Positions 11,777 through 18,229 of a stretch of 64,000 nt of DNA are shown here, piece after piece. The translations under genes and the position numbers were made by a program. The stretch is taken from assembly GCF_964213995.1 (NCBI RefSeq), contig NW_027590160.1, forward strand, positions 62,001 to 126,000, written 5' to 3'. Below the pieces are notes generated by a model that made no database searches, had not been told where the DNA came from, and saw only the letters and a program-made list of their open reading frames with translations. Source of the stretch: Mustelus asterias. Taxonomy: Eukaryota. Position 1 is the first letter of the stretch. Each line of letters opens with the position of its first letter.

Positions 11777-12478
11777 TTACTTGTGAACTCGCTGGTGTCT
11801 CAGCAGGTTGCCTGAGTGAATGAATCCCTTCCCACACTTGGAGCAGGTGAATGGTCTCTCCCCAGTGTGAACTCGCTGGTGTACAGTGAGTTGAGATGAT
11901 CGTCTGAACCCAGTCCCACAGTAAGAGCACCTGAATGGCTTCTCGTTAGTGTGAACATGTTGGTGGGACACCAGTTCCCCAGAACTTTTAAAGCATTTCC
12001 CACAGCCTGGGCATTGAAAAGGTCTCTCATCCGTGTGAACTCTTTGATGCGACACTTGTTCCCGAGAACTCTTAAAGCACTTCCCACATTTTCTGCATTT
12101 AAAAGGTCTCTCATCAGTGTGAATCTGCTGGTGTTTCAGCAGGTGGGTTGACTGAATGAATCCTTTCCCACACTCGGAACAGGTGAAAGGCCTCTCCCCG
12201 GTGTGAACCCGCTGGTGCAGGAGCAGGCTGTATGACTGAGTGAAGCCTAGCCCACACTCGAGGCAGATGAACGGTCTTTCCCCAGTGTGACTGCGTCGAT
12301 GCGTTGCCAGTTCAGACGGGTAATTAAACGCCTTCCCACAGTCCCCACATTTCCATGGTTTCTCCTTGCTGTGACTGCGAATGTGTTTCGCCAGGCCAGA
12401 TGATCGACTGAAACCTCGTTCACACACACAACACGTGTACAGTTTCTCCCCACTGTAAATAGAGTTTTTTCCTTCCAT
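11777..12478 (-). CDS. C2H2 ZNF locus 3, 8 fingers, intact
   Basis: MEGKN start and 8 finger units. Acceptor tttcacag at ~12588. Confidence 0.88.
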
Positions 12479-13120
12479 CTTCAAAATCCAATAATATTCA
12501 GGTTATGATAAACTCCACAACTCTGTCAGATTTTGATGTGATGCTTGGGTGGAATTTCCCAACTGCAAATACTCCTCTTCTAATTGCCTGTGAAATTGAT
12601 TTAAAACGGAAAAAAGAGAGTGAGAAAGAGCCCACAAAAACACAAAGGCAGATTGTGAAATTGAGCTGAATGAATCTGGTAATTTGTGGGGCCGGCACAA
12701 GGAAAAAGTGACCATGAAAATTGCTGAATTGTCATAAAAACCAACTGGTTTACGCATGGCCGTACCTGGGGTTAGAGAAAATGGGCAGGGTTTTTGCTCG
12801 CTCTCTGCGCTGTGTTTTGTGGAGATGGGAGGCCGCAGGCCGCCTGCTGGTGACAGGATCTTATGATCTCACCGTTGTCAATGGGGCTTCCTGTTGAACA
12901 CACCCCTCACTCTGGGAGACCCGCAGCAGGGGTGCACTGTCGGCGGAACCGTAAGATCCTGCCGGTGAGAACAGCAGCAAGATTTCGACGAATGTTTCAT
13001 GATGTACATAATGATTTCCAGGAGTAAAAACAGTGCAGAATTTGATGGTCAATGTAAGATTAGAAGTGGAAGAGAAATGGACAAGAACACAGAAATAAAC
13101 CATTCCTGACTGAAAAATAC

Positions 13121-14030: not shown

Positions 14031-14114
14031 CTTTCTTTTTCCTTCTCTGTCACCGCTCTGCCTCATCAATAAGACATTGGGACTCAGAGGGTTGATGCAG
14101 TTTAATGGACATGT

Positions 14115-14152
14115 TCGCTTCTCGGCCTTTTGGCTAAGATCAAGTGTAGTAT
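14115..14152 (+). ncRNA. RNU2: U2 snRNA 5' fragment (nt 2-39); not a full gene
   Basis: tcgcttctcggccttttggctaagatcaagtgtagtat matches the vertebrate U2 5' end including the branch-pairing GTAGTA. A second partial copy lies at 14225-14245. Confidence 0.9.
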
Positions 14153-14318
14153 TGACATGCTGTGCTTGGTTGAAGTCATGAGGTTACATTTTAGCTGCAT
14201 TTGAAGCAATTTTTAAAAGCGGCATCTCGGCCTTTTGGCTAAGATGCAAATGAGATCAAGCCTTGGAGGAGGAGCTATGCCTACTCCAATCAGCTTGGAT
14301 CAGGTAGATCAAGCCCAA

Positions 14319-14756
14319 TAAGAAGTTTAACAACACCAAGTTAAAGTCCAACAGGTTTATTTGGTAGCAAATGCCACGAGCTTTCGGAGTGCTGCCCCCT
14401 CGTCAGGTGGAGTGGAGATCTGCTTACAAACAGGGCATGATGTGGAGATGCCGGCGTTGGACTGGGGTAAGCACAGTAAGAAGTCTCACAACACCAGGTT
14501 AAAGTCCAACAGGTTTATAAACCAGTTGGACTTTAACCTGGTGTTGTGAGACTTCTTACAAACAGGGCATACAGAGACATAAACTCAATTTACAGAATAA
14601 TGATTGGAATGCGAATCCTTACAGGTAATCAAGTCTTAAAGGTACAAACAACGTGAGTGGAGAGAGCGTTATCACAGGTTAAACAGACGTGAATTGTCTC
14701 CAGACAGGACAGCCAGTGAGATTCTGCAAGTCCAGGCAAGCTGTGGGTTTACAGAC
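14319..14756 (-). mobile_element. Penelope-like terminal repeats nested in the U2 element
   Basis: Penelope termini in tandem and inverted orientation. 13-bp TSD agatcaagcccaa at 14306-14318 and 14757-14769. Confidence 0.8.
14374..14410 (-). ncRNA. Minimal hammerhead ribozyme motif
   Basis: CCAC-CUGACGA-GGGGGCAGCACUCC-GAAA-GCU-C-GUGG. Confidence 0.65.
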
Positions 14757-14934
14757 AGATCAAGCCCAAGACAGGAGGTGAGAGCCCTGTCTTGTCAGCT
14801 TGGATCGGGAATGTCTCAACTTGTTGAGACTCTGAATTGGACTTAATTTGATTGAATTGGAATAGAAACAAAAAAAATGGACAAGCTGTCTCCATTCTGA
14901 ACTGGGGGAACAAGCTCCTCCCACTGATTGACAA

Positions 14935-15360
14935 CATTGCCCTCGACAAACATGGCGGCCGCACGTGCGCACTGCTGCATATTGCCCCCAATAAAGATGG
15001 CGAACGTTAACCCGGGACGAACATGAGGAGCTGCAGCCCTGCTCGGTACAAACTGGGTCCGGGAAGCTCTCTTCCGCGGTTTGCGGCTTACACAACATAT
15101 TTACGCAGCGTTTCCACCCACCTGGACGATCCATTGCTCTCTCCGTACCGCCAATCACCTCGAACAGATTTCCGAGCCCAAAACAAAAGCAGCTGTCCAT
15201 CGCCATTACTCTGTGCGCATGCGCCGGTCAAAGCTGGCCCCGCCCCTCATTCGCTCCTATTGGTTGGAGGACCGGCCGCTCCAGATCGGTCCTCCAGCAC
15301 TGCCCCCTCTTCCCATTGGTCCGCGCTGCCGTCAATCAGCCGGGCATTGTGACGGTGACT
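14935..15360. promoter_or_regulatory. CpG-island promoter, probably driving locus 3 or bidirectional
   Basis: YY1-like aacatggcgg and aagatggcg, NRF1-like tgcgcatgcgc, and the family CCAAT/inverted-repeat module at 15237-15355. Confidence 0.65.
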
Positions 15361-15390
15361 TGCTGCTTGTCCAATAACAAGTGACAGAGT

Positions 15391-16097
15391 CTCAGTGTAA
15401 CAATGACACACACAGGCTCCAATCCAATCAGAGTGGGGATGGAGCACAGAGACAACACAGCAAAGCACTGACTTACTCTGAGTGTAACAGTGACACACAC
15501 AGGCTCCAATACACTCAGAGTGGGGATGGAGCACAGAGACAACACAGCAAAGCACTGACTTACTCTGAGTGTAACAATGACACACACAGGCTCCAATACA
15601 ATCAGAGTGGGGATGGAGCACAGGGACAACACAGCAAAGCACTGACTTACTCTGAGTGTAACAGTGACACACACAGGCTCCAATACACTCAGAGTGGGGA
15701 TGGAGCACAGGGACAACACAGCAAAGCACTGACTTACTCTCAGTGTAACAGTGACACACACAGGCTCCAATACACTCAGAGTGGGGATGGAGCACAGGGA
15801 CAACACAGCAAAGCACTGACTTACTCTGAGTGTAACAATGACACACACAGGCTCCAATACAATCAGAGTGGGGATGGAGCACAGAGACAACACAGCAAAG
15901 CACTGACTTACTCTCAGTGTAACAGTGACACACACAGGCTCCAATACACTCAGAGTGGGGATGGAGCACAGGGACAACACAGCAAAGCACTGACTTACTC
16001 TGAGTGTAACAATGACACACACAGGCTCCAATACAATCAGAGTGGGGATGGAGCACAGAGACAACACAGCAAACACTGACTTACTCTGAATGTAACA
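15391..16097. repeat. 87-bp minisatellite, ~8 copies
   Basis: Units start at 15391, 15478 and so on, giving the 29-aa periodicity in all overlapping ORFs. Confidence 0.95.
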
Positions 16098-18229
16098 AAT
16101 ACAATGTTTGTTCAAATAATAAGTCACGTTGCAGTATGTTCGTGAACACAGCATTAGATCCAATGTAATGATAATACAGTCAGTATCTAGTGTACCATAA
16201 CCAGAGTTTAGGTTTCATTTGATAGTGTGAGTGAGTCATGGTCTATTGATATAATGTATTTAAATTCCGGTGTGTGTTACTCTCCCACTGTCGTTATCAG
16301 ACAATAACCTGTCTGTTATTCCAATTCTGCTGTATTTTACAACTGCAGCTCCTGGGGCTGATTGGAGTCTGGTATAATAATCACAAAGGTCGGTTTCAGT
16401 GTCTCTGAGGTCATTTAACTGCAGGTAATCTGACATTAAGGGAGACAAGAGGCCCAACAAACATTTGATTACAATAGGAGAACAAGGTGTAAGGGAGCAA
16501 TGATATTTTAAGGTGTCTGTGTTATGGTGAGTGATAAAATAGAAGTGGAAACATCATGACAGATACATGTGACTGACTCGGCCTGACTGAGAGCTGTTAT
16601 ACTCGAGGCGAGACTAATGAGGACATGGGGAACTCCAGGAATTTCTGATATCTGAGGTGTGTCTGTTAGAGGAACTAAAAATAATCAGTTCCTTCTCATG
16701 GTTATCTGCAGTTCTCAAGTTACACAGACACACAGGAAACAGGTCTGATAGCTCATCAAACCCAACGTTTTAATATTCAGTTTGAGACACATTGTGACTG
16801 AAAAGATCAAATATTAAAACCTTAGGGGAGAAACATTCAGAATGTCACAAAGATGAGTGAACTGTCCAATTAATCCCAATCACCATAACTCTGCCAATTT
16901 ACCTTCTGCAAGTATTTATCCAATTCCCTTTGAAAGTTAATATTAAACCTGCTTCTAGCACCTGTCAGTTTGTGCATTCCAGATCATATCAAGATATTGT
17001 GTTAAAAATTCTCCTTATCACCCCTTCCAGTTCCGTTGTTAATTATATTAAATCTCTGTGTCCTCTGCTTACAGACCCTCCTGCACCTGGGAAATAGATT
17101 CTCTCCATCGACAGACTTCCTGCTCCTGGGAAATAGTGTCAATGGAGAGAAACTATCATAAATCATTTGTCATTTTAAACATCTCTATTAAATCACCCCA
17201 TCACATTCCCTAATCTAAGATGGAAAGCCCATGTTTTTCCTGCCCTGAAGAATTATATGGACTCAAAATGTTAACTGTTTCTCTCTGAACAGATGCCGCC
17301 GGACCTGCCGGGTTTTTCTGCTTTTCTCCCTGCTTTTCCTTCGAAAATCAATCAGAAACTCTTCATGATTTTGAACATCTTGATTAAATAGGAACACACA
17401 GAGCCTGAGAAAGATACAGAGGGGGAGAGAGAGACGGAAAGACTGAGAGAAAAATTGAGGAAGAATTTAAAAAGCAGAAAGATGAGGTGGTCAAAAATAA
17501 AAGTTGAGAAACAGAAGAAACAAGCAATACAGAGAGAACAATCTAGAATAAAAGGGAGCAGGCTATCAGTTCCCAGCTGTGGGGAGCAGAGGGAACTCAG
17601 TAACTGATCCACAGACACAGCTGGTTATATCTGCGAATGGAAACTCTGAACAGAAATAACAGGCTCATTTGTAAATGTCACCACAATGTGATCTGTGTGA
17701 CTCTGCCCTGACTCTGTGGACAGATATAGGTCACATTGACAGATGTTCTCACCAGATTGTGGTCCCTGGATTTATTTTCTGCTCAGAAGTGAGATGTGAG
17801 GTTTGGAACCGGCAGCAGAGAAACAGGAAGTTGTGATACCTGAGAATGAAACAGCCGGCGTCAGTTTGATGTTATCACCATGAACAGTCTTCCTGTCTGT
17901 GAGGGTGAACTCACTCTGACAGCACCAAGAACAACCACACAGATTGCTACCGGTCTCAGCATTACATTCACCTCCATTCCCATTTTAAACAATAAAGAAA
18001 GGAGATTATTTAGACTTTTAACACATTCACTGAATTGGGAGATGGACTGAGGGTCATCACTGGGAGAAATGAGGAGGAATTAGAGAACAAATGAGTTTTC
18101 CCAAAGAGGGTTATTAGAAAAGAGGAGATTTAAAGTGAGTCAGGGCCTGTCAGAGGAAGTGGGAGAGAGAAACAGAGAGGATTGAATCTCCATCAATTAG
18201 ATGTTTTCTCAGACAGCGAAGAGAGATGA

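Follow-up and report, generated by a model that had tools for sequence, protein, structure and literature searches.

According to the main text of Kojima (2015; PMC4494074), SINEs headed by an snRNA have been reported only from crocodilians (SINEU-1 to SINEU-3). How such promoterless elements are transcribed was left open there, and SINEU-1 was described without a 3′ tail shared with a LINE. Two LINEs have been described as U2-specific, namely Keno, which is of the Tx1 clade and has an APE endonuclease, and Utopia, which has an RLE (PMC4640811). For R2, target-derived (28S) bases at the 5′ end have been postulated to anneal, giving uniform 5′ junctions (PMC3774820 and PMC3414825).

Here, a stretch of 64,000 nucleotides from Mustelus asterias (the window; contig NW_027590160.1, positions 62,001 to 126,000) was found to contain a single, interrupted copy from a SINE family that is dispersed, ~310 nt long and headed by U2. 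A Keno-type Tx1 LINE likely copies the family, and its transcripts likely come from a few copies that reside in U2 genes. The family would take SINEU-type elements beyond crocodilians and link one of them to a U2-targeting LINE, and with named loci at which such a SINE is joined at +1 to an intact U2 promoter, the question of its transcription is now testable. In titles and abstract openings of the literature outside Repbase, Dfam and subscription journals, neither a U2-headed SINE outside crocodilians nor a non-autonomous partner of Keno was found; the family may already bear a name in a database.

The window copy and its family

Table 1. Anatomy of the window SINE and of the insertion within it (window positions).
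Feature	Position	Strand	Remark
5′ target-site duplication	14104..14113	+	9/10 match to 14876-14885
U2 head, U2 nt 1-39 with nt 1 changed	14114..14152	+	3′ end is the Keno insertion site
Antisense arm: U2 nt 13-39 copied in inverted orientation, diverged	14157..14183	+	16/27 identical; predicted to pair with head
Short hairpin	14194..14207	+	from subfamily alignment and folds
Second U2 piece, U2 nt 4-30, extended stem-loop I	14222..14247	+	from alignment and fold energy
Octamer-like 8-mer	14244..14251	+	likely by-product of stem extension
Hairpin module A: outer stem, C/UCA internal loop, inner stem, variable loop	14251..14302	+	
Module B, 5′ arm	14306..14318	+	duplicated by nested insertion
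Nested Penelope-like (weakly indicated) 3′ fragment, 42-bp inverted repeat, 13-bp duplication at end (14757-14769)	14319..14769	-	
Hairpin module B, remaining part	14770..14806	+	internal loop identical to that of module A
Terminal hairpin C	14813..14830	+	
3′ tail and A-rich tract	14831..14877	+	no significant similarity to Keno 3′ end
3′ target-site duplication	14876..14885	+	first A's common to tail

The copy in the window (Table 1) is bounded by a 10-bp target-site duplication (TSD; AATGGACATG at 14104-14113 and AATGGACAAG at 14876-14885) with the single mismatch already described in a sequence-only reading of this DNA, and the octamer lies where that reading had placed it (14244-14251). 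The head, then read as U2 nt 2-39 at 14115-14152, was corroborated by comparison with nt 1-39 of the genome's own U2, the sole mismatch being nt 1. The proposed second U2 piece is real (28/31 identical between U2 nt 4-33 and element nt 109-139 of an intact copy) but starts at 14222 rather than 14225, and what had been taken for ~70 nt of non-U2 sequence opens with U2 nt 13-39 in antisense, diverged form and is largely an antisense U2 arm. The hairpin at 14194-14207 is symmetrically shortened compared with the 10-bp stem of other subfamilies. Removal of the nested insertion had been predicted to leave ~310 bp, and intact relatives join 14318 to 14770 exactly as proposed; the two halves of the window copy are 200/204 and 92/93 identical to one of them. 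Identity as a U2 gene or one-off pseudogene was rejected because U2 nt 40-191 are absent and the family is multicopy. The window copy itself is most likely dead and ordinary. Part of the stretch is contained in 19 runs (8 organisms and a fish metagenome), in all of them as contigs, and none is recorded as RNA.

The insertion that splits the copy (14319-14769, 451 bp) has its own exact 13-bp duplication (14306-14318 and 14757-14769) and belongs to a multicopy family. Its proposed affiliation with Penelope is weakly indicated by a relative containing an ORF with a GIY-YIG match below the Pfam cut-off (E 0.032; 14.9 bits versus 22.6), in which the motif is visible. Matches of the insertion to miRNA families in Rfam reflect only its inverted repeat. 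A CUGANGA...GAAA stretch on its minus strand (14360-14420), which we take to be a hammerhead-like core, had no match in Rfam.

The locus is present in at least six segmental duplicates (96-99.7% identity), which have the SINE and the first insertion in common, and paralogous copies carry additional insertions. The order of events was thus SINE, Penelope-like insertion, duplication, further insertions. A CpG-rich stretch starts at 14949, ~64 bp past the end of the SINE, and contains YY1/NRF1/CCAAT-like motifs that are presumably promoter-like; this is what had been called a ZNF promoter ~60 bp away, and the stretch with its motifs is present, the promoter itself being a label given from sequence. 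If the window copy had been co-opted to help regulate the adjoining ZNF promoter, this short distance and the retention of the copy in six paralogous loci would fit. Yet, the copy is split by an insertion, its paralogues have acquired more, and the paralogy is that of segmental duplication at 96-99.7% identity; co-option is therefore highly improbable, and a role of the copy at the promoter found no support. Beside the CpG-rich promoter-like stretch, an 87-bp minisatellite (15390-16098; 8.2 copies, 96%) varies in copy number among the paralogues. At least nine C2H2 zinc-finger exons lie on both strands between 1256 and 53596, the closest at 11780-12502 (minus strand).

In the whole genome, a 22-mer from the 3′ end of the SINE had 5,016 exact matches (control, 0) and a 22-mer diagnostic for the window's subfamily had 317, both counts being lower bounds. 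The 107 near-full-length copies collected (a few counted twice in overlapping loci, and the window's cluster, which served as the query, over-represented) contained five clusters of at least three members, 9-15% apart and 4-7% diverged within. Searches made without regard to U2 context gave 72 copies reaching 5′ to nt 15 or beyond; TSDs were discernible in 31 of these, compared with 9/500 mismatched control pairs. Half of these near-full-length copies (36/72) start at U2 nt 1-2, and no non-SINE 5′ extension was common to any two of the 72. The target at 23 non-tandem sites was weakly GY|A (G in 10/23, a pyrimidine in 18/23 and A in 18/23, the last inflated by the SINE tail), a pattern that the insertion site in U2 fits. 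Many copies with distinct TSDs, which the earlier reading had named as support for a SINE, were thus found (>5,000 family copies, A-tails, TSDs in 31/72); as for the kind of mobile snRNA-headed retroposon, both alternatives offered were true, the family being dispersed like SINEU and inserting at the Keno site of U2 genes.

The SINE is short (<500 bp), non-coding and multicopy, with 3′ poly(A), TSDs and a U2-derived 5′ head, and shares its target preference with a Tx1 LINE without a common 3′ tail. These features place it in the SINEU class as a type of element. A classical Pol III SINE was rejected because only U2 was above the cut-off in Rfam and internal T-runs are present. Likewise rejected as origins of the body were the remainder of U2 (nt 40-191; p 0.14-0.75) and U4, for which the sense p was 0.16-0.39 across four subfamilies and a single antisense p of 0.028 among 8 tests was discounted. 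In the body, no other Rfam family or ribozyme came near the cut-off (best HDV score 12 bits, E 7), and no LINE match was found.

At one locus (L021:1448-1500), an extra piece of true U2 (nt 1-52) precedes the SINE within one TSD, and template switching to U2 RNA thus does occur. Such events could in principle have made every copy an independent chimera, in which free U2 RNA was joined onto a LINE-derived body and the head was not inherited. However, the head/body junction is fixed within subfamilies, which largely refutes this reading; subfamilies also inherit their head variants, no LINE match was found for the body, and the arm fits the head, so that an origin of this kind is scarcely credible. 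Short stretches beside U2/Keno or SINE pieces (L059, ~260-285, and the second copy in L027) are presumably similar to the U1 5′ end.

Predicted folding of head, arm and body

The antisense arm (element nt 44-70, antisense to U2 nt 13-39) matches at 16/27 positions, and 8/11 of its differences are A>G or C>T, by which Watson-Crick pairs become wobbles. Its sequence identity alone was marginal (p 0.02-0.09); when the head was kept fixed and the arm shuffled, 0/300 sequences folded equally well in each of five subfamily representatives. All 11/11 core pairs were kept in 71/77 copies despite the variable arm sequence. In 29 copies with intact heads, the predicted mean unpaired probability of nt 33-38 was 0.11, compared with 0.89-1.0 for nt 34-38 in U2. 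The branch-point hexamer, which the sequence-only reading had considered available in the mobile RNA, is thus predicted to be paired in nearly all copies. When the body was shuffled, the hexamer was masked equally in 6/100 cases for the window's subfamily and in 0/100 for another. Judged from these modelled folds, there is a fair probability that masking of the hexamer by the arm is under selection, which would suggest selection against interference with splicing.

The second U2 piece folds to an extended stem-loop (-14.5 versus -8.2 kcal/mol for the U2 original), and this extended stem includes the inserted G by which the octamer arises. According to this model, the octamer is likely a by-product of hairpin extension. 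Its earlier interpretation as an snRNA enhancer found no support: upstream of the genome's two U2 gene types, scans of 500 and 250 bases revealed no perfect octamer. The same two points bear on the idea that the SINE has a promoter of its own, the octamer and a 3′ PSE-like stretch either driving the next tandem copy or acting internally. In HeT-A, one copy drives the next in tandem arrays; here, tandems are frequent, the octamer lies ~200 bp upstream of where the next copy starts and it is retained in the main subfamilies. Nevertheless, with stem extension explaining the octamer and the scanned stretches upstream of the U2 genes lacking a perfect one, an own promoter is very unlikely.

Modules A and B have one common internal loop and variable end loops. 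In an alignment of the body (25 distinct sequences; 26/107 copies aligned), pairing holds for 96% of cells, with a covariation score above 500/500 shuffles, but this score rests on one clean compensatory pair and two wobble switches and is inflated by relatedness, and the number of doubly changed pairs was reached by 293/500 shuffles. In the MFE structure of one intact copy, modules A and B pair with each other instead (z -2.3).

Three of the 107 copies (L065:1930-2250, L171:947-1278 and L146:1234-1549) were hyper-mutated from A to G on the sense strand (14/18, 11/16 and 11/19 changes), and the other copies showed no such excess (A>G 47, T>C 61). The edited A's favour a 5′ U or A (21/67 versus 15/101; p 0.013). 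ADAR editing of double-stranded RNA produces A>G changes with a 5′-neighbour preference. The three copies likely fit a double-stranded RNA intermediate edited in this way, the edited RNA having apparently been written back into DNA.

The Keno-type LINE and SINEs in U2 genes

The genome has a U2 array on C24 and a variant one on C21. The latter (C21:28,045,000-28,082,000; L124-L129) consists of a 448-bp unit with a different promoter, is ~90% identical to the C24 U2 and contains inversions and many Keno insertions. Both arrays harbor a LINE of 5.2 kb encoding a ZCCHC3-like and zinc-knuckle ORF1, an APE endonuclease, an RT and a zf-RVT domain. This LINE has its own U2 head (nt 1-33/35), is followed behind its A-tail by U2 nt 38/39-191 and forms seamless fusions to the U2 promoter. 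It combines an APE endonuclease and RT with insertion at U2 nt 38/39, as Keno does; because of the APE endonuclease it was classified, by domains and site, as Keno-type and not as Utopia. Its ORF2 matched unnamed chordate RT clusters in the Atlas. The LINE is also dispersed (602 exact genome matches). Eight promoter+U2 starts were mapped on C21, of which four are intact, three lead into Keno and one leads into the SINE. At C24:44,815,159-44,935,499 (L038-L052 and L096), a unit of 8,035 bp recurs ~16 times and comprises one U2 gene that is intact, one full-length Keno and U2 nt 38/39-191; thus, Keno was amplified along with the U2 array. An additional Keno-like family, ~84% identical and followed by U2 sequence, is located at C24:41,743,000-41,760,000 (L095, L142 and L143).

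The partner of the SINE is very probably this Keno-type LINE. The SINE adjoins Keno at 6/29 sites, taken from the first 30 position-ordered matches along C1 (5 without a U2-derived composite), where chance, assuming 10,000 SINE copies, would give ~5e-4 per site; SINE-Keno tandems (L010, L015 and L022) have one TSD per tandem. The 3′ end shared with Keno that the earlier reading had envisaged was not found, similarity of the tails being insignificant (shuffle p 0.33 and 0.48; best BLAST E 0.21). A SIDE-like non-autonomous Keno derivative was rejected on the same values, neither the 5′ nor the 3′ end of the SINE being LINE-derived.

The sequence-only reading had advised looking for copies inside true U2 loci, and in both U2 arrays family members do occupy the Keno site (U2 nt 38/39). 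The junction of SINE end and U2 had 12 matches, of which 10 continue as U2 and 2 do not. Two SINEs are fused seamlessly to near-intact U2 promoters. At C24:43,060,550, the promoter has 0/300 mismatches to that of an intact neighbouring unit and is followed by U2 1-40, the SINE body, an A-tract, a truncated Keno, U2 39-52, a second SINE and the remaining U2. At C21:28,064,532, the SINE lies on a variant U2 promoter (3/250 mismatches) and the remaining U2 follows. The C24 copy has a private deletion whose pattern matches only itself (1 match) and, having no exact descendants, it is not a shown source. A promoter-fused copy of the window's subfamily was not found among 2 + 11 matches to exact patterns, which overlook variants (one pattern missed L108). 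U2-type arrays turn over and collapse in assemblies, and this absence is therefore weak evidence. None of 30 position-ordered SINE matches lay in U2 sequence; homing is thus the exception.

Several dispersed copies retain flanks of U2 loci: L111 has the last 7 U2-promoter bases inside its TSD, L114 ~90 U2-promoter bases, L113 (C1:80.33 Mb) a whole U2-array unit within its TSD and L104 U2 on both sides, inside the TSD. In L101, which belongs to the window's subfamily and lies in a Keno tandem, 21 nt of U2 follow the tail. Together, these copies span four subfamilies, and TSD-bounded dispersed copies carrying U2-locus DNA indicate that U2-embedded copies have been transcribed and reverse-transcribed. 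Dispersed pieces of U2 array with spacer and promoter were observed at L113, L116 (C8:80.29 Mb) and L117/L118 (C14:62.23 Mb), a TSD being seen for L113; they constitute a route for spreading snRNA promoters.

U2-embedded copies are, from these sequence features, probably the main source genes. The long U2-flanked retrocopies L113, L116 and L118 require an origin from read-through RNA and not from a start at U2 +1, and they raise the alternative that Keno moves the SINE while its source RNA comes mostly from dispersed copies, through host-promoter read-through or Keno transcripts, the U2-embedded copies being incidental to Keno's target preference. SINE-Keno and SINE-SINE tandems are common, the diagnostic promoter-fused copy on C24 left no exact descendants, and flank-derived 5′ extensions are described for SINEU-2 (PMC4494074), all of which speak for this alternative. 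On the other hand, the 72 copies have no non-SINE 5′ extension in common, half of them start at U2 nt 1-2, and the 5′ extensions that were found derive from U2 loci, though the searches were promoter-directed; read-through of dispersed copies as the main source is therefore considered unlikely.

Proposed cycle and comparison with known systems

With U2-embedded copies as main source genes, the following cycle is proposed. The Keno endonuclease would nick many weak GY|A sites, U2 nt 38/39 being preferred, and the Keno RT would prime on the A-tract of the SINE. In a U2 gene, cDNA of the U2 head could anneal to the gene's nt 1-39, by analogy with the annealing of 28S bases postulated for R2, and the product would be promoter-head-body-A-tract-U2(39-191). 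Transcription from the snRNA promoter would then begin at the first base of the SINE itself, which would make the product a new source gene. The antisense arm would fold over the branch-point hexamer and keep the RNA from competing with U2. That some relatives lie directly behind a U2 promoter likely accounts for the transcription of a SINE without a promoter of its own. A more far-reaching version, which is tentative and rather doubtful, has the SINE as a self-renewing parasite of U2 genes, its head serving as a homing arm and as spliceosomal sequence to hide: a capped snRNA-type transcript would run through the Sm site and 3′ stem-loops of U2, perhaps forming a branch-point-masked pseudo-U2 snRNP, and each subfamily would have been founded by a new landing in U2.

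The closest described elements are those of crocodilians (PMC4494074). Like SINEU, the shark family is <500 bp long and has an snRNA-derived head, repeated U2 pieces, a poly(A) tail and ~10-bp TSDs; tandems with one TSD, the lack of a LINE-shared 3′ tail and internal oligo-T are also common to both, and in either case the Tx1 partner is Keno-related and itself snRNA-headed. In contrast, SINEU prefers Mariner-N4_AMi, whereas the shark family has dispersed and also homes into U2 genes, where promoter-fused copies result, and the main text of that report (PMC4494074) describes no antisense arm over the head of SINEU. With Keno and Utopia (PMC4640811), the family shares the U2 site, downstream U2 resuming from nt 39 with nt 38, an A, common to the tail; reptile Utopia resembles it in a duplication of up to 20 bp. 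It differs in that the SINE is non-coding and in that both the partner LINE and the SINE are mostly dispersed, that is, of relaxed specificity. R2 SIDEs, too, are non-autonomous elements at the site of their LINE in a multicopy RNA gene and are co-transcribed with it (PMC3774820 and PMC3414825). Unlike the SINE, however, they derive from R2/R1 by deletion and have an HDV-like ribozyme and the 3′ ends of the LINE, and their target is 28S rDNA, whereas that of the SINE is a Pol II snRNA gene outside which most of its copies reside.
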